Positions 4,616 through 42,676 of a DNA stretch of 64,000 nt are shown piece after piece (the stretch's first letter is position 1; every line of letters starts with the position of its first letter). Position numbers and translations under genes: made by a program. Origin of the DNA: Candidatus Poribacteria bacterium (GTDB lineage Bacteria; Poribacteria; WGA-4E; PCPOR2b); the NCBI GenBank assembly GCA_965222805.1, contig CBDCUX010000005.1, forward strand, positions 4,068,770-4,132,769, given 5' to 3'. The notes under the pieces are model-generated. The model was given only the letters and a program-made list of their open reading frames with translations, was not told where the DNA came from and searched no databases.

Positions 4616-4748
4616 GAAAATTGATTGCCGTAAGACAAGCTGACAATTTGCACCAATTTTTGTGATTGTTGAAAAACAGGGAACCTGTCCTCGCAACCCC
4701 TTCGCAAGGAGTTGCGGGGGCTCGTTGTTTCGTATAAGGAGATTATTT

Positions 4749-5693
4749 ATGCCACTATGGGAACGTCAACTCAACGAATGGCTTACCGAGAAACCGGAAC
4801 GCACAGCGGCGGCTGATTTTGAAGCGTTCTGGGACGAAACGCAATCGCTGGCTCAATCCCAACTGCTGAATCCAGAGGTTGTCTCTGTAGAATACCCTTC
4901 AAAGAAGCTATCCGCCTATCAGGTCTCGTTCGATGCCTTTGACCGTGGCCGTATTCAGGCATGGCTTCTCGTACCTATCGCTTCCACATCGGAGAAACTC
5001 CCCGCACTCATCCGTTGGCACGACTACCTCGGTTTTCGTGGACGTATCTGCACACACCTGTCGTGGGCACTTCAAGGATTCGTCGTGCTCGTGCCAGATA
5101 TCCGGGGGCACGGAGATTCTTCCGACTTGACTCATTACTCGTGGGGTAATAACAAGGGTTACTTCGCTCAAGGCATCCAGGATTCGCACGAATACTATTT
5201 ACGGGGCTGCATCGCCGATGGGCTGCGAGCGGTTCAGTTTCTTAACGAGCGTGAGGATGTCGATTCAGATCGGGTCGGGATTATTGGAGATGGGCTAGGC
5301 GGGTTGGTCAGTCTATGGACGGCGGCATTTAACCCGCAGATCAACACGATTGCCCCAGTTGCTCCGTATCCTTGCGATTGGGAGCGGCATGTTATCAGTG
5401 CGAGCAGCGTTGCCGCGGATGAAGTCAAGATTTACCTGACGCGCTATCCGGAGCACGAAGAGACGGTCTGGAAAACATTGAGTTACTTTGACCCGATCAA
5501 TATCGCTCACCGTGTAACGTGTCCGTCGCTGTTCCCCCTTGGTCTACAGGGCAACACCGCACCACCTCAAGACTCAGTGGGCATCTACAACCTGCTCGAA
5601 GCCGAAAAGGAGTTGAAACCACTGCCTTACGACGGGCACGGCGCAGGTATTGAAGAGTTGATTGGCTGGATGCAAGAGCGGTTAACCCCGTAG
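4749..5693 (+). CDS. Acetyl xylan esterase / cephalosporin-C deacetylase family (CE7) paralog, apparently catalytically inactive
   Basis: Homologous throughout to the adjacent CE7 gene. The nucleophile motif is GDGLGG where the paralog has GGSQGG, and the acid position is LQGNTAPP where the paralog has LRDTTCPP. The His region YDGHGAG is retained. ATG 4749 has AAGGAG 7 nt upstream; the ORF track start at 4662 is a spurious extension. Confidence 0.75.
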   Translation: MPLWERQLNEWLTEKPERTAAADFEAFWDETQSLAQSQLLNPEVVSVEYPSKKLSAYQVSFDAFDRGRIQAWLLVPIASTSEKLPALIRWHDYLGFRGRICTHLSWALQGFVVLVPDIRGHGDSSDLTHYSWGNNKGYFAQGIQDSHEYYLRGCIADGLRAVQFLNEREDVDSDRVGIIGDGLGGLVSLWTAAFNPQINTIAPVAPYPCDWERHVISASSVAADEVKIYLTRYPEHEETVWKTLSYFDPINIAHRVTCPSLFPLGLQGNTAPPQDSVGIYNLLEAEKELKPLPYDGHGAGIEELIGWMQERLTP

Positions 5694-5768
5694 CAAACTG
5701 TAGGGCAGTAGGGAGTCATAGATGTAATTCTCTACCATCAGTTTGTGCGATAACAGGAGATTTATACG

Positions 5769-6731
5769 ATGTGGACATTTGACTTACCATTAGAAGAGTT
5801 GGAAACTTACAAACCACCCCGCACCGCGCAGCCGGACTTTGAGGAGTTTTGGGCACGCACGAAAGCGGAGGGATTGGCACAACCGTTGAACCCTGAGTTG
5901 GTCCCTATTGACTATCCTGTAAAACGGGTTCAGGTATTTTCTGCAACATTTGATGGCTACGCGGGCGGAAGTGATCAGCCACCGCGGGCAGGTGGTTGGT
6001 TTTTCATTCCCGAAGACCCTGCCCCGCGCCCGGCGTTAGTGATCTACCACGGCTACCACGGCTATCGCGATAGAATCTCGACCCATTTGCCTTGGGCGCT
6101 GATGGGGTTCGCGGTGTTAGCGATGGATGTGCGTGGACGTGGTGAGGCACCGGATTGGACTGAGTATGAAGGGGGGCACGGGCTCGGCTGGATGACTCGA
6201 GGCATCATGAACAAGGAGGAATACCTCTATCGCTTCGCTTATATGGATTGCGTGCGTGGTGTCGAATTTATCGCGGGGCGTCCGGAGGTAGATCCCGATC
6301 GAATTGGCGTGCTCGGTGGTTCTCAAGGTGGCGCCTTGAGTCTTGCTGTTGCAGCACTGAGTGACCGACCCGCCATCGCGATGCCGATGGTTCCCTTCCT
6401 ATGCTACTATCCCGATGCCGTGAAGATGGCACGGGAGAACCAATACGGCGAGTTGAACAACTACTTCATTCGTTATCCTGAACGGGAAGCGGAAGGGATG
6501 AAGACGTTGAGCTACGTTGATAATATGAACCTTGCACCGTGGATAACCTGTCCGACGCTGGTCTCCGTTGGCTTGCGGGACACCACCTGTCCGCCCTCGA
6601 CCGTTTATGCGACCTATAACCATCTCACCTGCGAGAAGGAGATCCTGTATTACCCCTACGACATGCACAGTGGTGGTGGTGACGCACACAGGGAGCGGGT
6701 AATCGAGTGGGCGCATCGGTTGAATCCGTGA
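5769..6731 (+). CDS. Acetyl xylan esterase / cephalosporin-C deacetylase (CE7 family, AXE1)
   Basis: GxSQGG nucleophile motif (VLGGSQGGALS), Asp in GLRDTTCPPST, His in YPYDMHSGGG. The length and N-terminus are typical of CE7. Confidence 0.85.
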   Translation: MWTFDLPLEELETYKPPRTAQPDFEEFWARTKAEGLAQPLNPELVPIDYPVKRVQVFSATFDGYAGGSDQPPRAGGWFFIPEDPAPRPALVIYHGYHGYRDRISTHLPWALMGFAVLAMDVRGRGEAPDWTEYEGGHGLGWMTRGIMNKEEYLYRFAYMDCVRGVEFIAGRPEVDPDRIGVLGGSQGGALSLAVAALSDRPAIAMPMVPFLCYYPDAVKMARENQYGELNNYFIRYPEREAEGMKTLSYVDNMNLAPWITCPTLVSVGLRDTTCPPSTVYATYNHLTCEKEILYYPYDMHSGGGDAHRERVIEWAHRLNP

Positions 6732-6821: not shown

Positions 6822-8744
6822 TCAGAACCATGTCGTATACAGGGGTGTTTTGAGAATAATACTCAGCAGTCCCCAATATGTGCCGACAATGAAGTCCCCA
6901 ACCACCAATCCCATGAAAAACGGGACAACCTTCCGATAGGCCGTCGCCCCGCCGTGTTTTAAGATTAGCAATTTTATCGTCCAGCAGACCAGAAGCGCGA
7001 ACCAGTAGACATCAATGGTGCCGGAGCTGATGCCCAGAATATATCCCGCTGGGTGGAATGGAAACCATATAAAACGCATCCGCATCCATCCCATTAGAAT
7101 TGAGAAAACAACCGAACCACCAATGATACCGGTGCCTAAAGTATCGGGTTCCTTAGGATTTTGTAACCAGCCGCTCAAGCTATTGGACGCTTGGGTGCCT
7201 GCTGCTAGCAATTCCCCGGCGGTTGAGGCGCCGTACTGGTACAGCATGACCGGAAAGATCCAGAATGCCAAGAGAACACCAACAATAAGAGAGAGCATCA
7301 TCGCCCAAGTGAGTCGTTGGGTATTGGCACCGGTGCCTTCGGCGGACTTGAAGGCTTCCAACTGGTGAGGCATGGGGTGGCTTCGGTTTAACCGATTGAA
7401 CCAATAAAACAGCGAGAACATAGTCAAATTTGCAGCGCCGATTTTGCGCGTTCCAAGCGCAGAAACGAGCACGACTTGTGGATTCACGAGGACGATTGCG
7501 TGTAAAGGTGGACCCAATTCGGCTCGCATTCGCGTGAGTGCTGTGGCAATCATGAAGTAGAGTCCGAAGAATACCGGCACAAGCCATCGAGACATCCCTA
7601 AACTGTTGCAATAAAAAATCAGGACGATCATCCCGCCGATGAAACAGAGCACCGCTGTCCGATAACGCATTGGCTCGTCCGAATCATCAAGTGTTGATTT
7701 CAGGTTAATAACCTTCTTGAAAACCTCCCAAAAGTACCGTCGTCCCATGTAGAGTGTCATCACACATAACCCAATCATCGCCCCGGTGGCTTGCTCCCCA
7801 AAAAACGGATAGCGCGGCATAGTATTCCAACCCATCATTGCGCCGAGCAATCGCTCCATTTTGCGAAACAGGAAGAAGAACCATGTCGAAAAGGTGAGGT
7901 CTAAAGGTATTAGGAAGGAGAGTCCAATAAGAAATGGGTAGAACCGTATTGGCAACGCACCGATGGCATTCCACGGTTCCTCTGTGAACAAGACACCCAG
8001 ATTGTAGCTGGGCTCCTTGATTGGAACATGTGGAATCTTTGGATATATAAAACTTATCCCGTTGATGAGGCTGATTGCGCCTGCGACACTAAAACCTATC
8101 CACATGAGCCGGTTACGAAAGAAGCCGTGGGTGGGATTGGTCATCTCCATTGGGATTTGGATAATTGGATAGGCGAGTCGCTCATTTTCGATCCACTGCT
8201 TCCGAAGGATAACGTTAAGACAGATTAGCATAAAAAAGAGGACTGAAATCAGGAACGACCACGCAATGGCAGGCCGGATCCAGAATCGATAGTAGCCTGC
8301 GGACCAGAAGGCAGATTCGCCTTTGTAAAAATACTCGACAGCGTCAGGGTCTCGGACGAGCAGCACATCCGGAAGGTATCTGTGAAAGAGGTTTGCCCAT
8401 TCGTTTGCAGGTGTCGCGTAAAAATAGGCATGAGGAATAACCCCCATCATACAGACCATGTTGTCGTGGGCGGTGACGGCGGTGGTTGCGGAGACAGTGG
8501 TGTAAATCATCAGCAGTTCCGCTTGCGAAAACGGCTCCTTCGACATGAACCGCCCGCCGATTTTGTTGAATAAAATCAGGAAAGAAAGGAAAAAGATAGA
8601 GAGTTGCGGCAGGGACATTGATGTCCAATGGAGGGAATGCCATATCATCTCCTCAAGTGCCACAAGGTAGAGGCACAGAGGCATGAGCAGCAATCCAAAC
8701 AGGATTGCTCTTATTGAGATGCGGGAGGTTTCGACCTGTTTCAT
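6822..8744 (-). CDS. Polytopic integral membrane protein, unknown family (paralog A), about 14 predicted TM segments
   Basis: 640-aa ORF, strongly hydrophobic and W/F/Y-rich. About 75% identical to the adjacent paralog at 8931-10880. I recognise no catalytic motif. Confidence 0.6.
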   Translation of the reverse strand: MKQVETSRISIRAILFGLLLMPLCLYLVALEEMIWHSLHWTSMSLPQLSIFFLSFLILFNKIGGRFMSKEPFSQAELLMIYTTVSATTAVTAHDNMVCMMGVIPHAYFYATPANEWANLFHRYLPDVLLVRDPDAVEYFYKGESAFWSAGYYRFWIRPAIAWSFLISVLFFMLICLNVILRKQWIENERLAYPIIQIPMEMTNPTHGFFRNRLMWIGFSVAGAISLINGISFIYPKIPHVPIKEPSYNLGVLFTEEPWNAIGALPIRFYPFLIGLSFLIPLDLTFSTWFFFLFRKMERLLGAMMGWNTMPRYPFFGEQATGAMIGLCVMTLYMGRRYFWEVFKKVINLKSTLDDSDEPMRYRTAVLCFIGGMIVLIFYCNSLGMSRWLVPVFFGLYFMIATALTRMRAELGPPLHAIVLVNPQVVLVSALGTRKIGAANLTMFSLFYWFNRLNRSHPMPHQLEAFKSAEGTGANTQRLTWAMMLSLIVGVLLAFWIFPVMLYQYGASTAGELLAAGTQASNSLSGWLQNPKEPDTLGTGIIGGSVVFSILMGWMRMRFIWFPFHPAGYILGISSGTIDVYWFALLVCWTIKLLILKHGGATAYRKVVPFFMGLVVGDFIVGTYWGLLSIILKTPLYTTWF

Positions 8745-8930
8745 TTTGAGTCGATGTCTAATTTTTGTTTCGTGGATTAGGGTTTTATACTAACGCAAAT
8801 CGCCACCTATCGCCCCGTTGGGGGCAAATGAGCTAATGAATATTTTTCTGAATCAGGATTAAAGGATTGAAGGGTTTTTAGGAAAAAAACGTGGTGCCTG
8901 AAATGTGAGATCAGTTTCCACCATTTCGGT

Positions 8931-10880
8931 TTAAAACCACGTTGTGTACAGGGGTGTTCCTAGAATGATACTCAGCAGTCCCCAATAGGTGCCGACGATG
9001 AAATCTCCGACCACCAATCCCATGAAGAAGGGCAAAATCTTCCTATAGGTTTTTACTCCACCGTGTCTCAGGACCAGCAGTTTGATCAGCCAGCAGACGA
9101 ACAAGGCGAACCAATAAACGTCAATTGTGCCAGAACTGACGCCCAGAATATATCCACCCGGATGGAATGGGAACCATAGAAAGCGCATTCGCATCCATGA
9201 CATCCACATAGAAAAGACCAGCGATCCACCAATGATACTGCCGCCGACTGGGTCCGGCGAACGTGGATACTGCAACCACCCGCCGAGGCTATTGTAAGCC
9301 TGCCAACCTGCACCCAGCAATTCCCCTGCGGTTGAAGCACCGTATTGATAGAGTACGACGGGGAAGATCCAGAATGAAACCAGAAGACCGACAAGCAAAG
9401 AGATCATCATCGCCCAGAATAGGCGGCTGGTGCTCGCGTGGGTGCGTTCTGCCGACTTAAATCCCTCCAGTTGATGCGGCATCGGGTGGCTACGGTTGTA
9501 TCGGTTGAACCAGAAAAGCAGGGAGAACATGGTTAGATTGGCTGTGCCGAGTCTTCGTGTCCCAAATGCTGCGACGAGAATAACTTGTGGGTTTACCAAT
9601 CGAATCGGATGCAAGGGGGGACCGAGCTCCGCTCGCATTCGTGTCAATGCGGTGGCGATCATGAAGTAAAGCGCGAAGAACAGTGGCACGAGCCATTGGG
9701 ACATCCCCAAGTGGCTGCAGAACACCATCAGGGCAATCATGCCGCCGATTAAACAGAGTACCGCAGTTCGATAGCGCATTGGTTCGTCTGTGTCGTCAAG
9801 CGTAGATTGGAGCCCAATGACTTTTCTAAAAACGTCGGTGAAGTGTCGGCGGCCTAGGTAGAGTGCTGTGATGCAAAGTCCAATCATAGCGCCGGTGGCT
9901 TGTTCGCCAAAGAATGGATATTGTGGGATAGTGCTCCAGCCAACCATCGCACCGACCAATCGCTCCAGTTTACGGAATAGGAAGAAGAACCACGTCGAAA
10001 AGGTGAGATCTAAGGGGATTAGGAATGAGAGTCCAATCAGAAATGGATAGAATCGCAGCGGCAGTGTGCCGATAGCATTCCACGGCTCCTCGTTAAAATA
10101 GACACCTAGATCGTAGTTTGGTTCTTTTATCGGTATGCGCGGCACGCTCGGATAGAGGAAGTTGAGTCCGTTGAGAAGGCTTATCACCCCAGCGACGGTG
10201 AATCCTATCCACATCATCCGGTTGCGGAAGAAACCGGAGCGTAAATCGGTCATCTCCAGCGGAATCTGAATAATTGGATAGGCGAGTCGCTCGTTTTCAA
10301 TCCACTGTTTTCTGAGAATAACATTGATGCAGAGCAGCATAAAGAAAAGGACAGCAAGCAGAAAGGACCAACCGATGGCAGGCTTAATCCAGAATCGATA
10401 GTAGCCGCTCGCAAAGAAATCGGATTCGCCTCTGTAGAAATAGTTCACCGCATTGGGGTCACGGATAACGAGCAGATCAGGGAGATGTTTGTGGAAAAGC
10501 GCTGCCCACTCGTTTTCTGGGGTGGCGTAGAAGAAGGCGTGCGTAAGGACCCCCATCATGCAGACCATGTTGTCGTGCGCGGTGTATGCTGTGGTTGCAG
10601 AAAGGGTCGTATAAATCATCAACAATTCTGCTTGCGAAAATGGATTTCTTGACAAAAACCGTCCAGCGATTTTGTTGAGGAGAATTAAGAAAAAGAGAAA
10701 AAAGATAGAGAGTTGCGGCAGGGACATTGATGTCCAGTGGAGGGAATGCCATATCATCTCCTCAAGGGCTACCAGATACGCACACAATGGCATCAGCAGC
10801 AATCCAAACAGAATCGATTTTATTGAAATACGAGAGGCGTCTGGCTGTTTAGCCTCACCATTTTCGTTCAGGTTCATCAC
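8931..10880 (-). CDS. Polytopic integral membrane protein, unknown family (paralog B)
   Basis: 649-aa ORF, collinear with paralog A across its whole length (shared WHSLHWTSMSLPQLSIFF... N-terminus and identical C-terminus GDFIVGTYWGLLSIIL.TPLYTTWF). Confidence 0.6.
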   Translation of the reverse strand: MMNLNENGEAKQPDASRISIKSILFGLLLMPLCAYLVALEEMIWHSLHWTSMSLPQLSIFFLFFLILLNKIAGRFLSRNPFSQAELLMIYTTLSATTAYTAHDNMVCMMGVLTHAFFYATPENEWAALFHKHLPDLLVIRDPNAVNYFYRGESDFFASGYYRFWIKPAIGWSFLLAVLFFMLLCINVILRKQWIENERLAYPIIQIPLEMTDLRSGFFRNRMMWIGFTVAGVISLLNGLNFLYPSVPRIPIKEPNYDLGVYFNEEPWNAIGTLPLRFYPFLIGLSFLIPLDLTFSTWFFFLFRKLERLVGAMVGWSTIPQYPFFGEQATGAMIGLCITALYLGRRHFTDVFRKVIGLQSTLDDTDEPMRYRTAVLCLIGGMIALMVFCSHLGMSQWLVPLFFALYFMIATALTRMRAELGPPLHPIRLVNPQVILVAAFGTRRLGTANLTMFSLLFWFNRYNRSHPMPHQLEGFKSAERTHASTSRLFWAMMISLLVGLLVSFWIFPVVLYQYGASTAGELLGAGWQAYNSLGGWLQYPRSPDPVGGSIIGGSLVFSMWMSWMRMRFLWFPFHPGGYILGVSSGTIDVYWFALFVCWLIKLLVLRHGGVKTYRKILPFFMGLVVGDFIVGTYWGLLSIILGTPLYTTWF

Positions 10881-11035
10881 TTCCTTATCGTGATTTGGGG
10901 GTTCACATGGTAAAACGGTTTTGAGTCATATTAAGAAATTGTGCAACTTGGGGTGAGCAGATGTAAATCGAGGGTTGATGTAGGTTTCAACGATCGTTGA
11001 AACCTACAAAATTCCGATCATTGTGCATCAACGTG

Positions 11036-12133
11036 CTAGGGTTGTTTAAGTTTTCCCCAGAGTGTCGTTAGCTTGTCTTGTGGAGAGACAGACAGTGCCC
11101 CCGGTGTATATTCGTAAATTGATGGGAACGATTGTACCCCCGCTCGGCCGCCCGGCACATAAATCTTGCCTCCTGCTACGGTGGCAGGGACCCCGGCTCT
11201 CCCTCGCGGTAGCGGAACGGCTTCATCGATGACCCATTCGTCGAGGGCTGGGTTGTAAACATCCACCCTTTTAAGAACTTCATCGTTGCTACCGTCGCTA
11301 AATGTGGACAGGCCGCCGATTGCGAAGATTCGACTGCTCAAAGTTGTAATTCCAAAAAGGGCTTTTTGCACTGGCATCGGTTTCTTGGCTTCCCATGTAT
11401 CTGTCGCCGGATCGTAGACTTCGATAACATTCAGGACCTCTTCAAGATTCCATCCGCCGATTGCATAAATCTTTCCCTGAAGCACAGCGGCCCCCAGACC
11501 GCCTCTTGGTGTTGGCATATCCCTTTTCTGATCAAAGGTATCTTCTTTCGGATCATACTCGAAAACGGTGCCGTACACCTCTTTCTGTGCGCCTCTATCC
11601 CATCCACCGATTACATAGATTTTGTCACCAACCACAGCCGCGGAAGTCGCCGCAAGTGCTTTGGGCAACTTCGCTAGTTTTTTCCACGCGCCTCGTTCTC
11701 CCGCCTCTGGATTGAATACTTCTACTGCATCAAGAACTTTGCCGCCACGCCTTGAGGCACCTCCAAACACATAAATCATACCATCGAACGTAACAGCCGC
11801 CATGCGTGCTCTTGTTGTTGGCATACTTCTCTTCGGTGCCCATGTATTGGTCACTGGGTCATACGCTTGGACGCGGTCTAGTGTCAGGTCACCGGGGTTC
11901 GGAATGTGCGGTGCTCGGTTGACTTCAATCCCGCCGATGACGTAGACTTTGCCGTCGACGCTGGCAGCAGCCGCACAACACCTTGATGACTCTGGCATGT
12001 TTTCTCTTCTTTCCCATTTGTCATCTGCTGCCAAACTACTACCGGTTATGGCTAACAGACCAATCAGGGTCAAGCCTGCGAAAAGGCACATGACATTGGG
12101 TTTCATGTCATGTGTTAGTTTATTTATTATCAT
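11036..12133 (-). CDS. Secreted Kelch-repeat beta-propeller protein
   Basis: Signal peptide, then six Kelch-type blades with a recurring GG motif (KVYVIGG, MIYVFGG, KIYVIGGW, KIYAIGGW, RIFAIGG, KIYVPGG). AAGGAG RBS upstream. Confidence 0.85.
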   Translation of the reverse strand: MIINKLTHDMKPNVMCLFAGLTLIGLLAITGSSLAADDKWERRENMPESSRCCAAAASVDGKVYVIGGIEVNRAPHIPNPGDLTLDRVQAYDPVTNTWAPKRSMPTTRARMAAVTFDGMIYVFGGASRRGGKVLDAVEVFNPEAGERGAWKKLAKLPKALAATSAAVVGDKIYVIGGWDRGAQKEVYGTVFEYDPKEDTFDQKRDMPTPRGGLGAAVLQGKIYAIGGWNLEEVLNVIEVYDPATDTWEAKKPMPVQKALFGITTLSSRIFAIGGLSTFSDGSNDEVLKRVDVYNPALDEWVIDEAVPLPRGRAGVPATVAGGKIYVPGGRAGVQSFPSIYEYTPGALSVSPQDKLTTLWGKLKQP

Positions 12134-12232
12134 ATTTATCTCCTTTTTCAGCGTTTATGCTGGGTTGGGCACAATTGTATACCTGTTTCCCAGCATCAAC
12201 AGTATCCACGCTTCTGGGTCAGGGGAATTCGG
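12134..12232 (-). pseudogene. Decayed remnant of a T9SS-type C-terminal sorting domain, immediately downstream of the stop codon of PD40 paralog 1
   Basis: The reverse-strand translation that continues past the stop reads LSKN*PNSPDPEAWILLMLGNRYTIVPNPA. This is homologous to LMQNFPNPFNPETWIPYYLANAATVTVRIY at the start of the CTD in paralogs 2-5. Confidence 0.55.
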
Positions 12233-13405
12233 CTAGTTTTTCGACAGCGCGCTACGCTTGACTTCGCCAAGGGTTGTAAAACGCTTCTGTTGTGGTTCGA
12301 CAGAACGGAGCTCGAAGACTGGATTCCATCTGGCAAAGGTATCGTTTCCGTCGGGATTGTTGCTGATATTTCTTAGCCCACCGCCGTTGGCGTCCATGAG
12401 GTACACTTCTCGGTTTCCATCTCGTCTCGACTCAAACAGGATTCTGCTCCCCTTGGGTGACGAGACTGGATAACTGTCGGTCCCGGGATCGTTTGTCAGA
12501 TTGACCTTATTATTGCCATCAGGATCCATGCGGTAAATTTCCCAGTTCCCATCCCGCTGAGTTTCAAAGAAGATGCCGCTTGTCGACCAATTAGGTCGTC
12601 TGTCGGTTTTCTCGTGGTCCGTCAACCGTATCAGATTGTTTCCATCAATATCGATAACATAGAGTTCTGCATTGCCATCTCGCTTCGATTGAAAGACGAT
12701 CTGCATCCCATCAGGTGAAAAACGACCCCACTCATCTGGTGCAATATGATTGGTGAGATTGAGCTGATTTTTACCGACCTCCCTTCCTGCTGCGTCGGCA
12801 ATAAAGATATCGAATTGAGATACATTGTCAATCAAATCACGATTGCTTTCAAAAACAACTTTTGTTCCGTCGGGCGACCAAGAGCCTTTCTGGTCCTTGT
12901 TGATACCCTCGCCCTCTGCATTTGCTATATTAACCAACTCTCCCGGTTTGTTATCGTTGCCCAAGGTCAGGAGGCCGACATCCCAACTTGCTGCCTGCGG
13001 CAGTTCCTGCGAATACACAAGGATGCGTGGATCGCCTTTCGGTGCGAATATGGGTTCATTTAATTTTGCACCGAGGGCTTTTCCTGTGAAATCTTGATCT
13101 TTTGGCTTTTGTGGATCTGTCATATCTACGATACGCAAATCAAATCGCTCCCCGCCTCGGATATTTGCACTGTAGACGATCAACGTGCCATCGGGCGACC
13201 AGTCAGGGGTTAGCGTTTTCACCTTATGATTTGTGAGTTGCACAACCTCATCATTATCGAACACCACACAAACTTCACTGCCGGCACCACGATCGCAGAG
13301 GAAAGATGCCATTGGCACCTGTGCCAATGCGGTGCTGACACTTAGGTAAACAAGAGAGACTAACAGAAAGCCCCCCCAAAATATAATAGAGTTTTTAACA
13401 AACAT
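12233..13405 (-). CDS. Secreted PD40/TolB-like beta-propeller protein, paralog 1 (CTD lost)
   Basis: ATG at 13405 with AAGGAG RBS. Signal peptide followed by the conserved mature N-terminus AQVPMASFLCDR. WSPDG / RDGN.E(I/L)Y PD40 repeats. Ends at ...TTLGEVKRSAL, where the paralogs continue into the sorting domain. Confidence 0.8.
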   Translation of the reverse strand: MFVKNSIIFWGGFLLVSLVYLSVSTALAQVPMASFLCDRGAGSEVCVVFDNDEVVQLTNHKVKTLTPDWSPDGTLIVYSANIRGGERFDLRIVDMTDPQKPKDQDFTGKALGAKLNEPIFAPKGDPRILVYSQELPQAASWDVGLLTLGNDNKPGELVNIANAEGEGINKDQKGSWSPDGTKVVFESNRDLIDNVSQFDIFIADAAGREVGKNQLNLTNHIAPDEWGRFSPDGMQIVFQSKRDGNAELYVIDIDGNNLIRLTDHEKTDRRPNWSTSGIFFETQRDGNWEIYRMDPDGNNKVNLTNDPGTDSYPVSSPKGSRILFESRRDGNREVYLMDANGGGLRNISNNPDGNDTFARWNPVFELRSVEPQQKRFTTLGEVKRSALSKN

Positions 13406-13562
13406 TGTTTTCTCCTTTAGGTCAGATTGGGAATTTAGAGTTTGGGAAAGAAACTTGAATTGCAAAGCAAATAGCGGCGGAAAGGGATCGAGCGTCCCCA
13501 ATGTGTAAGGCGTTAACTATCGCGGCAAACGCAATAGGTTCGCCGGAGTTTCCAGCGGACTG

Positions 13563-15005
13563 CTACTTCATGAGTACCATTCGTTTTGTTTCGGAGAAGT
13601 CGTCAGCGACAAGTTGGTAGAAATAAACCCCACTTGCCACGGATTGTCCGGTGTCGTCCCTGCCATCCCAGTAGGCTGCGCTCTGTCTGCCCGTGTAAGC
13701 TCCTGCTGCCTGTTTTCCAACATTGATGGAGCGAATTAACTCGCCCTTGACGTTGTAGATTCGCACAGTTACAGTAGCAGCATTGGCGAGATAGTAGGGT
13801 ATCCACGTTTCAGGATTGAAAGGGTTGGGGAAATTTTGCATCAAACTGGTGCGTTTGATGTCTCCAAGGGTCGTGAAGTATTTGCTTTGTGGCTCAACCG
13901 AACGGAGTTCAAAGACTGGATTCCATCTGGCGTCTGTGTCATTCTCAGGATGATTCGTGAGATTCCTCAGACCGGCACCATCGGCTTGTATGAAGTATAT
14001 TTCCCGCTTTCCATCACGTTTAGATTCAAATAAGATTCGCGTCCCTTTAGGTGACCAGATAGGTTTACTATCACTTTTAGGGTCATTGCTGAGGTTGACT
14101 TGATTGTTTCCATTGGGATCGGACCGATAAATCTCATAGTTGCCATCGCGGTTAGTTTCAAAGACGATGCCGCCGGGAGACCATTCAGCTCTTCGATCGG
14201 TCTTGTCATTTTCGGTAATCCGCGTAAGATTTTCGCCATCAATGCCTACGGTATAGATTTCCCAATTACCGTCTCGCTTTGATTCAAACACGACTGCTGT
14301 TCCATCAGGCGACCACCGTGCGCGCTGGTCGGGTGCCTCATGATCGGTGAGGTTAATCTGATTTTTTCCGGCACCCCGTTTTTCTGCGTCAGCGACGAAA
14401 ATATCGAACTGGGCTCTGTCGTTAATTTTACTGCGCTCGCTCTCAAAAACGATCTTGGTTCCGTCAGGAGACCAGGAGCCCTCCAAATCCGCTGTGATCC
14501 CTTCGCCCTCTGCATTCGAGATGTTGATCAGGGCATCCGCTTTTCCTTTTGCATCTAATGTGAGCATGCCTATATCCCAACCGTTGGGGTCTGGAAGGCC
14601 TGTGGAAAAGACAAGAATCCGTGGGTTGCCAGCCGGTGCCCATCGGGGTCCGGACAGTTTTATTCCGGGTCCGTCGGGCGGTCCTGTCAGGTCTATCTGT
14701 TTCGGTTTTTGCGGGTCGGTGAGATCTATAAGAAAGAGATCGAAGTTCTCGGCACCACGCACATTGGAATCGAACGCGATGTAATTTCCATCGGGCGACC
14801 ACTCGGGTGTAAACACCTTGGCTTTATTCTTTGTGAGTTGCTTAACCTCCCCGTTGTCATACAGAAGATAGACCTCATCGTCACCGGTGCGGTCGGAGAG
14901 GAAAGATGCCATTGGCACCTGTGCCAGTGTGGTGTTTACGCTCAGAGAGACAAGCAGGCCGAATAAAAGGCTTCCCCAAGATGGTATAGAGTATTTACCA
15001 AACAT
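13563..15005 (-). CDS. Secreted PD40/TolB-like beta-propeller protein with T9SS-type C-terminal sorting domain (Por_Secre_tail / FlgD-Ig-like), paralog 2
   Basis: Signal peptide plus AQVPMASFLSDR. Multiple PD40 repeats (WSPDGTKIVFES, RDGNWEIY). C-terminus NFPNPFNPETWIPYYL...VTVRIYNVKGELIRS...GVYFYQL...KRMVLMK matches the T9SS type A CTD consensus. Confidence 0.85.
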   Translation of the reverse strand: MFGKYSIPSWGSLLFGLLVSLSVNTTLAQVPMASFLSDRTGDDEVYLLYDNGEVKQLTKNKAKVFTPEWSPDGNYIAFDSNVRGAENFDLFLIDLTDPQKPKQIDLTGPPDGPGIKLSGPRWAPAGNPRILVFSTGLPDPNGWDIGMLTLDAKGKADALINISNAEGEGITADLEGSWSPDGTKIVFESERSKINDRAQFDIFVADAEKRGAGKNQINLTDHEAPDQRARWSPDGTAVVFESKRDGNWEIYTVGIDGENLTRITENDKTDRRAEWSPGGIVFETNRDGNYEIYRSDPNGNNQVNLSNDPKSDSKPIWSPKGTRILFESKRDGKREIYFIQADGAGLRNLTNHPENDTDARWNPVFELRSVEPQSKYFTTLGDIKRTSLMQNFPNPFNPETWIPYYLANAATVTVRIYNVKGELIRSINVGKQAAGAYTGRQSAAYWDGRDDTGQSVASGVYFYQLVADDFSETKRMVLMK

Positions 15006-15046
15006 AAGCTTTCTTCTTGCTTCCTTCTAGTAATTCTTACGTGGTC

Positions 15047-16453
15047 CTACTTCAAAAGTACCATTCGTCGTGTTTCGGAGAAGTCATCAGCTAAAAGCTG
15101 GTAAAAATAAACCCCGCTCGCCACGGACTGTCCGGTGTCGTCTTTACCATTCCAGTAGACTGCACTCTGTTTGCCCGTGTAAGCCCCTGCCGGCTGTTTT
15201 CCAACATTGATGGAGCGAATTAACTCGCCCTTGATGTTGTAGATTCGCACGGTTACAGTAGCGGCATCGGCGAGATAGTAGGGAATCCATGTTTCAGGAT
15301 TGAAAGGGTTGGGGAAATTTTGCATCAGGCTGGTGTGTTTGATGTCTCCAAGGGTCGTGAAGTGCTTATCCTGCGGTTCGACAGGACGCAAGAAATAAAC
15401 CGGATTCCATCTACCAAAGAAGTCCTTCTCGGGATTGTTCGTGAGGTTCTTCACGGCGCCGCCATCGGTATCCATGAGGTACAGTTCTGTATTCTTATCC
15501 CGTCTGGACTCAAATAAGACCTTTTGCCCATTGGGGGACAAGAGCGGATTTGCGTCTTTTCCTGGGTCATTGGTCAGATTGGTTTGATTGTTCCCATCGA
15601 GCTCCATCCCATAAATCTCCCAGTTTCCATCCCGCTTACTTTCAAAGACAATGCTGCTTTTTAGCCACTCGACATTTCGGTCGGTCTCATCATTATCGGT
15701 TAACTGCTTGAGGTTTTCTCCATCGGCGTCCATGACGAAGATTTCCCAATCGCCGTCTCTATTCGATTCAAAGAGAATCTTCGTCCCGTCCGGCGACCAG
15801 CGCGGGCGCTGGTCACCGGCGTCGTGCTTGGTGAGCAGCACCTGGTCGACGCCGGGTTTCCGGGTCGTCATATCCGCGATGACGATATCGAATGCGCCGC
15901 GCGGCCAAGCCACACGCCCACCATGAAAAGCTATCTTTGTCCCATCAGGGGACCAGGAGGCCTCGCGATCTTGGCCTTCTCCCTCGCCCGCCGCATTTGC
16001 CACATTGAAAGCGACGACATCATCTTCCTCGAAATCTAGCATGCCGACATCCCAATGGAGGGCGTTTGGCAGACCACCAAGCGACTCAACGAGCAGACGC
16101 TGCTCGCCCGTGGGCGACCATCGGGGTTTTTGCCATATTCCCCCAAACTTTCCCTGCATCAGGTCTGTCTGGTCTTTGTTTTTCACATCTATCGTATAGA
16201 TTTCAAAGCTTTCTCCGCCCCGTATATTACTGGTGAAGGCAATTGTCTGTCCATCTGGAGACCAATCGAAATCAGTCGTTTTGGCCTTGTTCTTTGTGAG
16301 TTGTTCAACATCGCCATTATTGAACAGGAGATAGATCTCTGGATCGCCGGATCTGCCTGAAAGAAAGGCTATCATTGGCACCTGCGCGTATGCTGCACCG
16401 ATACATAGGAGGGCTAAGCTTCCCACTAGGGTAATGATACCTTTGCGTGACAT
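15047..16453 (-). CDS. Secreted PD40/TolB-like beta-propeller protein with T9SS-type CTD, paralog 3 (the most divergent propeller)
   Basis: Start MSRKGIITLVGS at 16453 with AAGGAG RBS. AQVPMIAFLSGR N-terminus, PD40 repeats, conserved CTD ...NFPNPFNPETWIPYYLADAATVTVRIYNIKGE... Confidence 0.85.
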   Translation of the reverse strand: MSRKGIITLVGSLALLCIGAAYAQVPMIAFLSGRSGDPEIYLLFNNGDVEQLTKNKAKTTDFDWSPDGQTIAFTSNIRGGESFEIYTIDVKNKDQTDLMQGKFGGIWQKPRWSPTGEQRLLVESLGGLPNALHWDVGMLDFEEDDVVAFNVANAAGEGEGQDREASWSPDGTKIAFHGGRVAWPRGAFDIVIADMTTRKPGVDQVLLTKHDAGDQRPRWSPDGTKILFESNRDGDWEIFVMDADGENLKQLTDNDETDRNVEWLKSSIVFESKRDGNWEIYGMELDGNNQTNLTNDPGKDANPLLSPNGQKVLFESRRDKNTELYLMDTDGGAVKNLTNNPEKDFFGRWNPVYFLRPVEPQDKHFTTLGDIKHTSLMQNFPNPFNPETWIPYYLADAATVTVRIYNIKGELIRSINVGKQPAGAYTGKQSAVYWNGKDDTGQSVASGVYFYQLLADDFSETRRMVLLK

Positions 16454-16501
16454 TGTTAGGCTCCTTTTCAAGTGCTCCTACCCCATCCTTTGCAAGCCCT
16501 C

Positions 16502-17929
16502 CTATTTCATCACTACCATTCGTCGAGTTTCGGAGAAGTCATCAGCCAAAAGCTGATAGAAATAAACCCCACTCGCCACGGATTGTCCGGTGTCGTCTTT
16601 ACCATCCCAGTAAACTGCATGCTGTCGGCTCGTGTAAGCCCCTGCCGGCTGTTTTCCAACATTGATGGAGCGTATTGACTCACCCTTGACGTTGTAGATC
16701 CGCACGGTTACAGTAGCGGCATCGGCGAGATAGTAGGGAATCCATGTTTCAGGATTGAACGGGTTAGGGAAATTTTGCATCAAACTGGTGCGTTTGATGT
16801 CTCCAAGGGTCGTGAAGTATTTGCTTTGTGGCTCAACCGAACGGAGTTCAAACTGAGGATTCCATCTTGCATCTGTGTCATTCTCAGGATGATTCGTGAG
16901 ATTCCTCAGACCGGCACCATCGGCTTGTATGAAGTATATCTCTCGCTTTCCATCACGTTTGGACTCAAATAAAATTCGCGTCCCTTTGGCGGACCAAATG
17001 GGTTTACTATCACTTTTTTCGTGGTTGCTGAGATTAACTTGGTTGTTTCCATCGGGATCGGACCGATAAATCTCATAGTTGCCATCGCGGTTAGTTTCAA
17101 AAACGATGCCGCCGGGAGACCATTCAGCTCTTCGATCGGTCTTGTCATTTTCGGTAATCCGCGTAAGATTTTCGCCATCAATGCCTACGGTATAGATTTC
17201 CCAGTTGCCATCGCGCTTCGATTGAAACACGACCGCTGTTCCATCAGGCGACCACCGTGCGCGCTGGTCGGGTGCCTCATGATCGGTAAGATTTATCTGA
17301 TTTTTTCCGATAGCTCGTTTTTCTACATCAGCGACGAAAATATCGAACTGGGCTCTCTCTAAAACTTTCTTGCGCTCGCTCTCAAAAACGATCTTGGTTC
17401 CGTCAGGAGACCAAGAGGCTTCCAGATCTTGTCCGGCTGCTTCGCCATCTACGTTTGTGATGTTAATCAGCTCATCCACTTTGCCTTTTGCATCTAAGGT
17501 CAAGAGCCCTATATCCCAGCCGTTGGCGTTTGGTAGTCCTGCGGCGTAGACAATAAGCCGCAGGTCACCGGCAGGCGCCCATCGGGGTCCAGACAGTTTT
17601 AGTCCCGGTCCATCGGGCGGGCCTGTTAGGTTTGTCTGTTTCGGTTTTTGCGGGTCGGTGAGATCTATTAGAAACACGTCAAAGTTCTCTTCACCGCGCA
17701 CATTGGCATCGAAAGCAATGAATTCACCATCGGGCGACCATTCGGGAGTAAACACCTTGACTTTATTATTTGTGAGTTGCTTAATCTCTCCGTTGTCATA
17801 CAGAAGATAAACCTCATCGTCACCGGTGCGGTCAGAGAGGAAAGATGCCATTGGCACTTGAGCGTATGTGGAACCGATGAACAGGAGAAGTAAGCTTCCC
17901 ACTAGGGTGGTAATACCTTTGCGTGACAT
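16502..17929 (-). CDS. Secreted PD40/TolB-like beta-propeller protein with T9SS-type CTD, paralog 4
   Basis: Start MSRKGITTLVGS at 17929 with AAGGAG RBS. The C-terminal roughly 300 aa are nearly identical to paralog 2 at the DNA level. Confidence 0.85.
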   Translation of the reverse strand: MSRKGITTLVGSLLLLFIGSTYAQVPMASFLSDRTGDDEVYLLYDNGEIKQLTNNKVKVFTPEWSPDGEFIAFDANVRGEENFDVFLIDLTDPQKPKQTNLTGPPDGPGLKLSGPRWAPAGDLRLIVYAAGLPNANGWDIGLLTLDAKGKVDELINITNVDGEAAGQDLEASWSPDGTKIVFESERKKVLERAQFDIFVADVEKRAIGKNQINLTDHEAPDQRARWSPDGTAVVFQSKRDGNWEIYTVGIDGENLTRITENDKTDRRAEWSPGGIVFETNRDGNYEIYRSDPDGNNQVNLSNHEKSDSKPIWSAKGTRILFESKRDGKREIYFIQADGAGLRNLTNHPENDTDARWNPQFELRSVEPQSKYFTTLGDIKRTSLMQNFPNPFNPETWIPYYLADAATVTVRIYNVKGESIRSINVGKQPAGAYTSRQHAVYWDGKDDTGQSVASGVYFYQLLADDFSETRRMVVMK

Positions 17930-18074
17930 TATTAGCTCCTTTCCAAGCCCCAGAGCAGTTGCATGTAAATATTGTGTAGGACGGACGCACCCCAATTCCA
18001 AAAATCATGTCCGACTTCGGACTGCGTTATGATAGGACTTTGGCATACGACAATGAAAATCCAATCGCGGCATA

Positions 18075-18109
18075 GGTTTCCAACCCCAATTCATTGGGGT
18101 TAGGAAACC
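18075..18109. repeat. Perfect hairpin GGTTTCCAACCCCAAT-TCA-TTGGGGTTAGGAAACC, within a structured 250-bp intergenic region inside the PD40 array
   Basis: A 15-bp inverted repeat read directly. The neighbouring palindromes GTCCGACTTCGGAC (about 18022) and CCCGATCTATCGGGG (about 18150) are nested inside the imperfect inverted repeat GTTGCAGCGCAG...CTGCGCTACAAC. Confidence 0.6.
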
Positions 18110-18253
18110 CTGATTTCATCGCGGACAGGTTGCAGCGCAGCTACAATCCCGATCTATCGGGGTTCTGCGCTACAACGGGGGTTAACCCAAGGTTCTGATT
18201 GCTCAACTGCCTAATTCCTAATAACAGATGCAATTCAGCTATTCCAAGCCCTC

Positions 18254-19681
18254 CTATTTCATTACTACCATTCGTCGGGTTTCAGAGAAGTCATCAGCCA
18301 AAAGTTGGTAGAAATAAACCCCGCTCGACACGGATTGCCCGGTGTCATCTTTACCATCCCAGTAGGCTGCGCTCTGTTTGCCTGTGTAAGCCCCTGCTGC
18401 TTGTTGTCCAACGTCAATAGCCCGAACCAACTCGCCCTTGACGTTGTAGATCCGCACAGTTACAGAAGCGGCTTCGGCGAGATAGTAAGGGATCCATGTC
18501 TCAGGATTGAAGGGGTTGGGGAAATTTTGCATCAGGCTGGTGCGTTTGATGTCTCCAAGGGTGGTGAAATGCTTACTTTGTGGTTCGACGGAGCGGAGTT
18601 CAAAGACCGGATTCCAGCGCGCATAGGTATCATCGCCATCGGGATTGTTGCTGAGATTCACTAGACCGCCGCCATCGGCGTTCATGGTATAGATCTCCCG
18701 ATTGCCATCCCGTCTGGATTCAAATAGGATTCTTCTCCCTTTAGGTGACCAGATAGGGTGATTATCGCTTTTAGCGTCATTGGTTAGATTGACTTGGTTG
18801 TTGCCATCGGGATCCATGCGATAAATCTCATAATTGCCATCGCGCTGGCTTTCAAAGAGAATGCCGCCGGCTGACCAATTCGCCCTTCTGTCGGTCTTGT
18901 CATTGTTTGTCAATCGCAGAAGGTTTTCACCAGTGATATCAACCCGATAGAGTTCCCAATTGCCATCTCGTTTCGACTCAAATATAACGGCGGTGCCGTC
19001 CGGGGACCACTGTGCTTTCTGGTCAGGATGTTCATTATTGGTTAGATTGACTTGATTCTTTCCGGCACCTTTCTTCTCTGCGTCCGCTATAAATATGTCA
19101 AACTGTTTTTTACCGTTCAGCTTGTCGTTGCGTTCGCCCTGGAAGACAATCTTGGTTCCATCTGGCGACCATTCGCCGTTCTGATCTTGACCTACCCCTT
19201 CGCCTTCTGCATTTGTGATATTGATCAAGGCGCCCGCTTTGCCTGCATCTACTGTAAGCAGACCAACATCCCAGTTATCAGCATTTGGCAGCCCTGTGGC
19301 ATAAATAAGAATACGTGGGTCGCCTGCTGGTGCCCATTTAGGTTCATTCAATTTTAGACCAAGTGCGTCTCCTGTGAAATTTGACACGTCTGGTTTTTGT
19401 GGATCGGTCATATCAATTAAAAACAGATCGAAAGTCTCGCCACCACGCACATTGGCACTAAATGCGATAAAATTGCCATCCGGCGACCATTCAGGTGTCA
19501 GAGTTATTACCTTATTTTTTGTTGCTTGCACAATATTTCCATCGTGGTAGACGATGCAAACTTCATCCTTGTCGCCTACTTCACAAAGGTAGGATGCCAT
19601 TGGCACCTGCGCGTGTATTGAATTAATGAACAAAAAGGACACCAAACTCACTACTAGGGCGATAATATCTTTGCGTGACAT
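18254..19681 (-). CDS. Secreted PD40/TolB-like beta-propeller protein with T9SS-type CTD, paralog 5
   Basis: MSRKDIIALV signal peptide, AQVPMASYLCEV, PD40 repeats, CTD NFPNPFNPETWIPYYLAEAASVTVRIYNVKGELVRA... Confidence 0.85.
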   Translation of the reverse strand: MSRKDIIALVVSLVSFLFINSIHAQVPMASYLCEVGDKDEVCIVYHDGNIVQATKNKVITLTPEWSPDGNFIAFSANVRGGETFDLFLIDMTDPQKPDVSNFTGDALGLKLNEPKWAPAGDPRILIYATGLPNADNWDVGLLTVDAGKAGALINITNAEGEGVGQDQNGEWSPDGTKIVFQGERNDKLNGKKQFDIFIADAEKKGAGKNQVNLTNNEHPDQKAQWSPDGTAVIFESKRDGNWELYRVDITGENLLRLTNNDKTDRRANWSAGGILFESQRDGNYEIYRMDPDGNNQVNLTNDAKSDNHPIWSPKGRRILFESRRDGNREIYTMNADGGGLVNLSNNPDGDDTYARWNPVFELRSVEPQSKHFTTLGDIKRTSLMQNFPNPFNPETWIPYYLAEAASVTVRIYNVKGELVRAIDVGQQAAGAYTGKQSAAYWDGKDDTGQSVSSGVYFYQLLADDFSETRRMVVMK

Positions 19682-19812
19682 TATTAGCTCCTTTCCAAAG
19701 ATGATAAACTCCTTTCAACAGAGATAAGCGATTTATGGAAAACGATGGTGTAAGTGTAATGGAGGGCAACAATTGCCTGAAATTCCATTACCCTTACACC
19801 ACACAGATAGTT

Positions 19813-20523
19813 CTAGCGAGTAACTGCTGGTTGTCCACCACTTTTTAGTATGCCCCAGGTAGTCGCGAGTTTCCCTTTACTCTCAACAGCACGTGGATCT
19901 TTTCGAGGAAATTCCGTTGGCCAGGGGTCGTCGTCCGGCTTCTCGTCTTGGTCTTGACTGAGTAGCAGCTGATCAAGATTATGCGGCTGCTGCCTCGGGC
20001 TTGAACGTACCCGATGAAGTCCGCGTTCTTTTGCCTCCCACTCGACCGTTGTTTCTGGCGGAACACCTTGGCTAATCCACTTGTAAATGCCGGCATCAAA
20101 CACGTCACGCCAATTGCCCAACCCACGGCCTAAAAAGTCCGGGTCAGCGGTATGCTCTGTGGTACCGATTTGGTTATCAAACTGTAACCAGAAGGCATCA
20201 GTGCCGGTGTCACCATCGCTTTTGCCTCTTGCATAGACGAAATAGGTGCCTGCCTCGCACCAGAACTCAACTTCCCACCATGCCGTTGGCTCTGCAACCG
20301 GTGGATTCACTGCACCACCGATAAATTGAAATGCGAGGCCATTGGAAGCGTCGGCATCTCGTGCAAATGCAGTATTTTCCGGCGACGTTTCACCAAAATC
20401 TCTGATTGTCTCTGCGCTGATGACGACCTCTTCTATCGCAGCAAAGCCATTAGAAGCCATGCCGACAACGCAAAGTGCCATAAGCGTGCAGATTAATAAA
20501 CTTGGTGCTCTCATTTTAAACAA
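19813..20523 (-). CDS. Secreted hypothetical protein (signal peptide; W/F-rich middle; acidic/Pro-rich C-terminal tail)
   Basis: 236-aa ORF with an N-terminal signal peptide MFKMRAPSLLICTLMALCVVGMASNGFA. I recognise no known motif. Confidence 0.5.
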   Translation of the reverse strand: MFKMRAPSLLICTLMALCVVGMASNGFAAIEEVVISAETIRDFGETSPENTAFARDADASNGLAFQFIGGAVNPPVAEPTAWWEVEFWCEAGTYFVYARGKSDGDTGTDAFWLQFDNQIGTTEHTADPDFLGRGLGNWRDVFDAGIYKWISQGVPPETTVEWEAKERGLHRVRSSPRQQPHNLDQLLLSQDQDEKPDDDPWPTEFPRKDPRAVESKGKLATTWGILKSGGQPAVTR

Positions 20524-21142: not shown

Positions 21143-21709
21143 ATGTCAGAAGCGGTTAGTAACACGATGGTCGAAAACTACAAAGGTATCTTGCAACAGT
21201 ATTGTCAAAAACGGGCGCTAGGAAATCTAACCTATGAAACAGATCAACAGGGGACATCCAATGAACCGAGTTGGATTGTCACTGTTAAGTATGGGGAAAC
21301 AACCCACACCACGCCGGCACCGGTTCGTGGATCTAAGCGCTGGGCGGAACAGATAGCATCCAAACAGATTCTGGAGCAGATAGAATCCCACCAAGAAGCG
21401 TTTCTGGCAGGTGACTCCGTTGAAACAACCGAGACACACGAACAGTCAACGGAAATATCGTCGCTAGAACCCCTCTATGTACCGACCGAGCTTGTTACCA
21501 CTGCACTTGGCATCGCCAACCATCGATTGTCTGGACAGCAGCGTGGCACACGCTACCGTGACTCGGTGGAATCCAAGCAAAGCAATGAAGCGTTTGCACA
21601 GAACCTAGCAGATCTCACAATGCAGATTGTGCGTGAGGTCGCGAATGCTGCAAAGACTTCCGGCGTGACGTTTGGTGACACATCATCGCAACCTGAGGCT
21701 GAGGACTGA
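21143..21709 (+). CDS. Stand-alone double-stranded RNA-binding domain (dsRBD) protein with acidic low-complexity C-terminal tail
   Basis: The N-terminal 75 aa YKGILQQYCQKRALGNLTYETDQQGTSNEPSWIVTVKYGETTHTTPAPVRGSKRWAEQIASKQILEQI fit the dsRBM consensus (L..YCQK...P.Y.......GP.H...F...V.V.......G.G.SKK.A...AA..AL). The remaining roughly 110 aa are S/T/E-rich. Confidence 0.6.
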   Translation: MSEAVSNTMVENYKGILQQYCQKRALGNLTYETDQQGTSNEPSWIVTVKYGETTHTTPAPVRGSKRWAEQIASKQILEQIESHQEAFLAGDSVETTETHEQSTEISSLEPLYVPTELVTTALGIANHRLSGQQRGTRYRDSVESKQSNEAFAQNLADLTMQIVREVANAAKTSGVTFGDTSSQPEAED

Positions 21710-32891: not shown

Positions 32892-32985
32892 TCGAGTCAG
32901 TAAAAACAGTATCGTAGTCAACGCTAAACAATTTGCATTTGATACAGCCATCAGTCCTATATTGACACGAGAAAGGAAATTCACT

Positions 32986-42427: not shown

Positions 42428-42454
42428 TAGGAGGACTGAGCAACACCAAAAAAA

Positions 42455-42658: not shown

Positions 42659-42676
42659 TAACTGAAAGGAACCATC

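Follow-up and report, generated by a model that had tools for sequence, protein, structure and literature searches.

The 64,000-nucleotide stretch of Candidatus Poribacteria DNA analyzed here (the window) carries a conserved cluster of genes for secreted β-propeller proteins. The cluster spans window positions 6822 to 20523 on the minus strand, and it has syntenic counterparts in the Candidatus Poribacteria loci that we call L001/L002, L003, and L004. In order of transcription, it encodes a small secreted protein, five PD40 propellers, one Kelch propeller, and two membrane proteins with a predicted oligopeptide transporter/yellow stripe-like (OPT/YSL) fold. We postulate that the Sec signal peptides of the PD40 proteins are cut at an A-x-A↓Q site (the arrow marks the cut), which would leave the propeller at the mature N terminus, and that the C-terminal domain (CTD) of four PD40 proteins is a sorting or anchoring module that would bring the propellers onto the cell surface along a route resembling that of a type IX secretion system (T9SS). 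A peptide upstream of this domain, the junction motif, would stay on the mature proteins as a common docking or processing site. The propellers would be binding modules, not enzymes, and together with the two OPT-like importers they would capture and take up a peptide-like or chelate substrate. We give this explanation, taken as a whole, an even chance of being correct.

The cluster consists of the following features.

G7, 19813..20514, minus strand: first gene of the cluster, a 233-residue secreted protein with an acidic, proline-rich linker
G6, 18254..19681, minus strand: predicted seven-bladed PD40 propeller with junction motif (18545-18592) and CTD (18257-18526)
G5, 16502..17929, minus strand: PD40 propeller with junction motif (16793-16840) and CTD (16505-16774)
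G4, 15047..16453, minus strand: PD40 propeller (468 residues) with junction motif (15338-15385) and CTD (15050-15319)
G3, 13563..15005, minus strand: PD40 propeller with junction motif (13854-13901) and CTD (13566-13835)
G2, 12233..13405, minus strand: PD40 propeller of 390 residues without the CTD
CTD-start fossil, 12203..12232, minus strand: immediately 3′ of the G2 stop codon
Kelch gene, 11036..12133, minus strand: secreted Kelch-repeat propeller of 365 residues without the CTD
DUF6785/DUF6784 gene, 8931..10880, minus strand: polytopic membrane protein of 649 residues (Pfam E value, 4e-164)
Second DUF6785/DUF6784 paralog, 6822..8744, minus strand: 640 residues, with about 78% identity to the first

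For G2, G4, and G5, the longest open reading frame (ORF) begins further upstream, and the start was trimmed to a Met supported by orthologous gene calls. A preliminary description of this DNA had recognized six co-oriented secreted propeller genes, and we found them where it had placed them, on the minus strand. Its first gene matches Kelch_1 in Pfam (E value, 1.6e-56; 187.8 bits) in five stretches, that is, as multiple Kelch motifs, and G2 to G6 all match PD40 (PF07676; E values from 2e-26 to 2e-35). G4 is the most divergent PD40 paralog of the array. For G7, a profile search matched no Pfam or NCBIfam family.

The proteins encoded by G3 to G6 end in a domain of about 90 residues that runs to the stop codon. 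All four pass TIGR04183, the NCBIfam model of the T9SS type A sorting domain (31.8 bits in G3, 37.2 in G4, 28.8 in G5, and 32.1 in G6; cutoff, 23), and also FlgD_ig (PF13860) in Pfam (41 to 44 bits; cutoff, 27). In the same NCBIfam profile search, G2, the Kelch protein, and G7 had no match to TIGR04183. The domains begin with QNFPNPFNPET and end with GVYFYQL...RRMVxMK, a start and an end that are typical of CTDs in the Fibrobacteres-Chlorobi-Bacteroidetes (FCB) group, and the terminus itself reads (K/R)RMV(V/L)(M/L)K. In an AlphaFold2 (AF2) model of G3, residues 400 to 478 form eight β-strands of at least 3 residues, with predicted local distance difference test (pLDDT) values of 77 to 90. The T9SS type A CTD is described as a compact, seven-stranded, Ig-like 3+4 β-sandwich whose last strand has a conserved basic residue (PMC11285876).

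Like the CTDs of RgpB, PorU, PorZ, and mirolase, the window domains occupy the extreme C terminus of Sec-signal proteins whose cargo folds are unrelated. The same CTD is found on WD40, FG-GAP, NHL, and other proteins, and loci of Rhodothermales and Balneolaceae carry the same CTD class. These likenesses suggest that the module belongs to the type A CTD class, is independent of its cargo, and is present here in a poribacterial version. It differs from the known type A CTDs in that it comes from a phylum without reported T9SS machinery, and in that it is preceded by a junction motif, (S/A)VEPxxKxxTT(L/W)GxIK, which is also found alone at C termini. L080, from another poribacterial metagenome-assembled genome (MAG), shows an expansion that parallels this one but uses another type of propeller: three WD40-repeat proteins of 832 to 846 residues lie within 11 kb (4145-6676, 9488-12028, and 12344-14842), each with a signal peptide and the same CTD.

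Each of the seven secreted proteins encoded by the cluster has the junction motif, whose general form is (S/A)VxPxxKxxTT(L/W)Gx(I/L/V)K, and the rest of the window has no copy of it. In G3 to G6, the motif stands upstream of the CTD and reads (S/A)VEPxxKxFTTLGDIK(R/H)TSLMQ; in the other three proteins, it ends 2 to 9 residues from the stop. G7 closes with AVESKGKLATTWGILK (19843-19890) and 9 further residues, G2 with SVEPQQKRFTTLGEVK (12257-12304) and 7, and the Kelch protein with SVSPQDKLTTLWGKLK (11045-11092) and 2. The corresponding segment of G3, residues 369 to 398 (SVEPQSKYFTTLGDIKRTSLMQNFPNPF), is strongly conserved and predicted to be disordered; its pLDDT values, below 50 in the AF2 model, led us to reject the possibility that the motif is part of the propeller fold or the CTD fold.

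A set of 934 ORFs from poribacterial-type loci gave 27 matches to the C-terminal version of the motif, versus one doubtful match among 3400 ORFs from other phyla. The stand-alone carriers, secreted proteins of several folds, include further PD40 proteins (among them the type found in L031), a 3-keto-disaccharide-hydrolase-like protein, and proteins without a family. C-terminal carriers outside the window were located as follows.

L031, 9998-10960
L009, 9875-10939
L067, 9089-9961
L048, 10976-11965
L006, 7050-7952

The nearest relatives of G7 (38 to 62% identity) all end in the motif despite their divergent linkers; distant relatives are without it. One G7 relative, as read by eye, has a degenerate motif followed by putative cohesin/dockerin-like segments and then the CTD. 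Upstream of the CTD, the consensus ...VEPxxxxxTTLGxIKRTALLQN(F/Y)PNPFNP was present in 78 of the 100 CTD matches with sufficient upstream sequence (on WD40, FG-GAP, and other cargo), although this count is biased because the query contained the junction motif, a bias that tells against our explanation.

No curated Pfam or NCBIfam model covers the junction motif, and we found no mention of it in the literature searched. In the Rhodothermales and Balneolaceae loci, CTDs of this class come without the motif, which we therefore regard as an N-terminal extension specific to the CTD module of the poribacterial lineage. It also persists on its own. A bolder proposal, which we think unlikely, is that Poribacteria sort many secreted proteins by a route other than the canonical T9SS and that the junction peptide is itself the processing, docking, or attachment signal. 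Under that proposal, some proteins would use the peptide jointly with their Ig-like CTD, and in others it would act by itself at the extreme C terminus.

At the other end of the proteins, all six propeller genes and G7 encode signal peptides, those of the PD40 paralogs having an n-region, an h-region, and an A-x-A↓Q site. Signal peptides were judged by inspection and with a crude script. All five PD40 paralogs had been said to share an identical mature N terminus, AQVPMASFL.DR. Its first part, AQVPM, is invariant in the five, and the full motif fits three of them: AQVPMASFLSDR is the N-terminal motif of both G5 (17828-17863) and G3 (14889-14924), and the post-signal sequences of G4, AQVPMIAFLSGR, and G6, AQVPMASYLCEV (19577-19612), depart from it.

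The suggestion that this motif might be a processing or sorting signal of a new kind did not survive comparison with the structural model. The first β-strand predicted for G3 covers residues 33 to 37, with pLDDT values above 90, and the strand-A alignment of this protein sets qvpmASFLSDRTGDDEVY against pdgtAVVFESKRDGNWEIY, wspgGIVFETNRDGNYEIY, and pkgtRILFESKRDGKREIY. Because the propeller begins about four residues after the cut, AQVPMASFL..R is most simply read as the A-x-A↓Q cleavage site joined to the A-strand of the first PD40 blade, as the model predicts. In other poribacterial PD40 proteins, the IAFxSxRDG strand likewise begins a few residues past the signal peptide.

A Gln at position +1 of most signal peptidase I substrates, combined with a glutaminyl cyclase, constitutes the Q-rule for pyroglutamate N termini, which has been described as specific to Bacteroidetes (PMC5837995). 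With the crude predictor, a Q at +1 was possible in 17/49 signal-like ORFs of poribacterial loci (35%) and in 46/188 of those from other phyla (24%). Since this predictor gave no clear excess of Q at +1 relative to other phyla, the idea that the N-terminal motif is a Q-rule signal was dropped. Endings of the A↓Q type are common among the predicted signal peptides of the window and of L006, L009, L031, L048, L080, and L088.

The preliminary description had proposed structure prediction for one paralog, and the AF2 model of G3 (mean pLDDT of 84 from a 61-sequence alignment) gives a seven-bladed propeller at residues 31 to 362 and a CTD β-sandwich at residues 399 to 480. The propeller has seven A-strands and a closing strand at residues 356 to 361. 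Its best Foldseek matches were TolB (E value of about 1e-13), the propellers of S9 peptidases and DPP-IV, and a seven-bladed designer propeller. The PD40 proteins are thus modeled as closed, seven-bladed propellers of the TolB/S9-peptidase-propeller type.

The TolB C-terminal propeller (PDB 1c5k, 2hqs, and 4r40) is the best fold match, and it has the PD40 repeat signature in common with the window proteins. The TolB propeller has six blades. The window proteins differ from it in their seven A-strands and in the absence of the TolB N-terminal domain, for which there is no place because the propeller begins at about residue 4 of the mature protein. They also fall short of the TolB equivalog TIGR02800 (126 to 158 bits versus a cutoff of 343), and no tol-pal genes lie beside the cluster, the neighbors being the Kelch and DUF6785 genes. 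On these four grounds (score, missing domain, blade number, and gene context), identity with TolB was rejected.

The N-terminal propellers of S9 peptidases, DPP-IV, and tricorn are similar in their PD40-type fold, and matches to DPPIV_N and Tricorn_N were found. The window proteins differ from these enzymes in ending with a linker and an Ig-like CTD in place of an α/β-hydrolase domain; Pfam and NCBIfam detected no Peptidase_S9 or α/β-hydrolase catalytic domain in the PD40 paralogs. From their sequences, the PD40 propellers are therefore predicted to be noncatalytic.

It is very improbable, in our judgment, that these are enzymes after all, namely, PL22-type oligogalacturonate lyase-like or lactonase-like propellers whose products would be imported by the OPT-like transporters. 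Faint Pectate_lyase22 matches in G4 and its 468-residue orthologs point in that direction, but the match is below threshold (26.8 versus 30 bits) and covers a stretch of just 36 residues (model positions 43 to 78), matches of the PD40 and TolB types dominate, and a catalytic motif was not identified. Two acetyl-xylan-esterase genes flank the cluster, but on the opposite strand. One DUF6785 paralog elsewhere adjoins genes for an arabinofuranosidase, a sulfatase, and an S9 peptidase, which would also suit an enzymatic role.

The two DUF6785/DUF6784 proteins are the proposed importers. An AF2 model of the 649-residue protein, built with 64 homologs (pLDDT of 91, predicted template modeling score of 0.91) had a single significant fold match in the PDB, barley Yellow Stripe 1 (7wst_A; E value, 2.9e-9; template modeling scores, 0.60/0.64), and a search of DUF6785 against the PDB by sequence had none. 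The match extends over the whole length, and three DUF6785 homologs carry a precomputed match to PF03169 (OPT). Sequence identity to Yellow Stripe 1 is only about 14%, and the window proteins themselves gave no Pfam match to PF03169 at E values of ≤0.01. The model predicts an OPT/YSL transporter fold for the pair.

All named DUF6785 homologs are poribacterial, with several paralogs in each sampled genome region and in varied contexts. The pair is conserved in L001 and L003, again downstream of the Kelch gene. In L031 and L009, a DUF6785 gene of about 30% identity lies directly upstream of a motif-bearing PD40 gene in a gene context unlike that of the window; these two loci count as one further locus type because they are mutually syntenic. 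The distribution is suggestive of a DUF6785-PD40 pairing that is not general.

Several further observations weigh against our explanation. The link to the transporters is one of gene order in two locus types only, with other DUF6785 paralogs in unrelated contexts. Kamke et al. 2014 (PMC3909097) reported that they did not find structural T9SS genes in poribacterial single-cell genomes, and no T9SS component, such as SprA/Sov, PorV, PorU, PorK/L/M/N, or GldK/L/M/N, is present among the ORFs of at least 150 residues in the 64-kb window. The CTDs of G3 to G6, which had been described as four classical ones, are so by TIGR04183 and FlgD_ig, but the Pfam model Por_Secre_tail (PF18962) scores them below threshold (20.2 to 25.3 bits versus a cutoff of 27). 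Their closest sequence match among solved structures is FlgD (E value, 8.7e-6), with the PorU CTD reaching only 0.38. Moreover, G2 and the Kelch protein are conserved without a CTD, and the domain is therefore dispensable for some members.

These observations, apart from the one on gene order, favor the main rival explanation, in which the proteins reside in the periplasm, the CTD is an FlgD-type Ig-like spacer or binding domain, and the propellers are TolB-like partners of the OPT-like transporters or of the envelope. The proximity of the propeller fold to periplasmic TolB and the conservation of CTD-less PD40 proteins of the L031 type would also suit it. What speaks for a sorting role is that the domain is always at the extreme C terminus of signal-peptide proteins of many unrelated folds, a placement that is the behavior expected of a sorting module. 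The domain also scores above the curated cutoff of TIGR04183, it ends in the K/R-x-x-V-x-x-K type of terminal strand described for T9SS CTDs, and its class is that of the CTDs in Rhodothermales and Balneolaceae. T9SS is known from the FCB group, to which both of these lineages belong. We rate periplasmic residence as somewhat unlikely and prefer surface export by a T9SS-like route.

How much of this is new depends on the part of the system considered. Kamke et al. 2014 (PMC3909097) reported TIGR04183 on many repeat proteins of Poribacteria, WD40 proteins in particular, and the phylum includes sponge symbionts rich in repeat proteins. That case is like ours in its phylum, its secreted repeat or propeller cargo, its Por-type CTD, and the T9SS genes that were not found; the window differs in that its cargo is PD40, not WD40, and is arranged as a syntenic tandem array with Kelch and OPT-like transporter genes. 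In the text available, the terms “PD40,” “Kelch,” and “TolB” do not appear, and the junction motif, CTD-less derivatives, and gene conversion were not found there. Beyond that study, the literature searched yielded nothing on T9SS in Poribacteria. The array itself is ordinary, as NCBI already names poribacterial PD40 propellers with type A CTDs and the pattern of TIGR04183 without T9SS was published in 2014; only the junction motif together with the export route has real potential for novelty. Two adjacent Sel1-repeat proteins of 262 and 491 residues (window 32103-34437), the second with eight Sel1 stretches, are typical of the repeat-rich poribacterial proteome.

The syntenic loci were recovered through exact-protein look-ups and a genome scan. 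L001/L002 include a 9.7-Mb contig, L003 lies on a circular contig of 6.04 Mb, and L004 lies in a 5.08-Mb Poribacteria MAG that, with 79% identity, was the best match among species-representative genomes. All homologs with a source name are from Candidatus Poribacteria bacterium, some of them labeled “T9SS type A sorting domain-containing protein.”

In L001/L002, L003, and L004, the common order is an opposite-strand gene for a double-stranded RNA (dsRNA)-binding domain, G7, the PD40 genes with a CTD, the CTD-less PD40 gene, and the Kelch gene, and both G7 and the Kelch gene have orthologs in place in L001, L003, and L004. In L001 and L003, two DUF6785/DUF6784 genes and then opposite-strand AXE1 genes follow the Kelch gene; L004 stops just past it. 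The number of PD40 copies ranges from four to six per locus, and L004 has two CTD-less copies.

In their propeller bodies, G6 is 98% identical to its ortholog L001a (L001 8303-9730), G5 is 95% identical to L001b (L001 10001-11428), and G4 is 98% and 92% identical to L001c and L003c, respectively. G3 has no positional counterpart in L001 and is a duplicate nearest to the G5 lineage (87% amino acid identity; synonymous divergence [dS], 0.40). The orthologs of G2, L001d and L003e, have bodies 80% and 77% identical to it; CTD-less orthologs of 389 to 391 residues occupy the same position in L001, L003, and L004. L003 (5846-8527) and L004 (4687-7365) have an extra gene inside the PD40 array, absent from the window, for a secreted CTD protein of 892 to 893 residues. 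The N-terminal half of that protein is internally duplicated and has an AQV start, and Pfam matches only its CTD.

The preliminary description had read the array as a fast-diversifying set of binders or enzymes that are displayed on the surface to interact with a host or with particles, share a classical T9SS route of export and anchoring, and bear an additional N-terminal signal. The observation behind it, a CTD more than 85% conserved next to diverging bodies, was borne out: among paralogs, CTD identity is 86 to 91% at the amino acid level, and body identity is 48 to 69%, except for G3/G5 at 87%. The interpretation was not. In pairwise Nei-Gojobori comparisons of the paralogs, the ratio of nonsynonymous to synonymous divergence (dN/dS) of the bodies is 0.11 to 0.28. 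Their dS is saturated, at 1.5 to 2.7 for all pairs but G3/G5, versus 0.28 to 0.66 in the CTD, and the contrast between CTD and body is largely a matter of this lower CTD dS and of gene conversion.

These values indicate that the paralogs are old and that their bodies are under purifying selection, in keeping with the 92 to 98% identity of the G4, G5, and G6 orthologs across genomes. The likeness of the 3′ ends combines selection on the common module with gene conversion; that is, the contrast arises because old paralogs under purifying selection have constrained and homogenized 3′ modules.

Along G4 and G5, sliding nucleotide identity is 86% in the signal-peptide window and 37 to 73% in the propeller body, and it leaps to 92 to 98% exactly at FTTLGDIK, continuing so to the stop codon. 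When G4 is compared with its ortholog L001c, the body windows are 96 to 100% identical, the signal-peptide window is 95% identical, and most CTD windows are only 85 to 93% identical, with 15 differences in 1092 nucleotides of body versus 27 in 315 nucleotides of motif plus CTD (Fisher's exact test, p = 3.9e-9). With L003c and L004c as outgroups, 16 of these 27 differences are derived in the window G4. Because the derived states cluster (mostly at tail positions 102 to 202) and mostly match paralogs of the G3/G5 lineage, we read this stretch of the G4 CTD as a recent gene-conversion tract.

Some evidence fits the diversification reading. The CTD passes TIGR04183, PD40 copies vary from four to six with an extra CTD protein in two of the loci, G3 is a lineage-specific duplicate, and the phylum, according to Kamke et al., includes sponge symbionts rich in repeat proteins. 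We nevertheless consider it improbable given the low dN/dS, the near identity of orthologs, the N-terminal motif that reduces to a structural strand, and a phylum from which, according to the same paper, T9SS genes are not known. The nearest genomes are MAGs whose source is not specified, and there is nothing to connect this lineage with a host.

G2 illustrates how a member can do without the CTD. The fossil that directly follows its stop codon translates in frame as PNSPDPEAWI, versus PNPFNPETWI in the paralogs; the L001 ortholog has the identical remnant, and in L003 the decay has gone further. From this decayed CTD start, it follows that G2 descends from a CTD-bearing gene through an old truncation. 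The conserved CTD-less orthologs in three other genomes date the loss as old and ruled out the candidate explanation of a recent, pseudogene-like truncation. G2 (12233-13405) is 80% identical to its counterpart at L001 13090-14262, and the CTD-bearing paralogs of the same genome pair are 95 to 98% identical. G2 evolved faster after the loss of its tail.

Elsewhere in the window, a divergent neighbor of the cluster on the plus strand (21143-21709) encodes a 188-residue protein with a dsrm motif (E value, 1e-9) and an acidic tail, and this dsRNA-binding-motif gene keeps its position in L001 and L003. A 2.3-kb stretch of low G+C content (41500-43780; 0.447 in the 42- to 44-kb bin) has short ORFs only, one of them with a putative GIY-YIG-like sequence as read by eye. 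This stretch, which may be a small foreign insert, is flanked by a solute-binding protein gene on one side and, on the other, by an ABC transporter operon that includes a TOBE-domain ATPase. A DDE transposase gene (49303-50358) adjoins two large paralogs of 577 and 593 residues (50566-54109), in which an N-terminal Rieske domain alone was recognized. Scans of the 64-kb window for tRNAs and Rfam families were empty, and a promoter and terminator scan was uninformative.

A first functional handle on both families would come from the conserved association between motif-tagged PD40 propellers and the DUF6785 proteins with their predicted OPT fold. The export route of the orphan CTDs is directly testable now that complete poribacterial chromosomes exist. 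If the junction peptide is a signal as proposed, it would amount to a new tag for sorting or retention at the C terminus, and the orphan TIGR04183 domains that have been noted in Poribacteria since 2014 would have their explanation.

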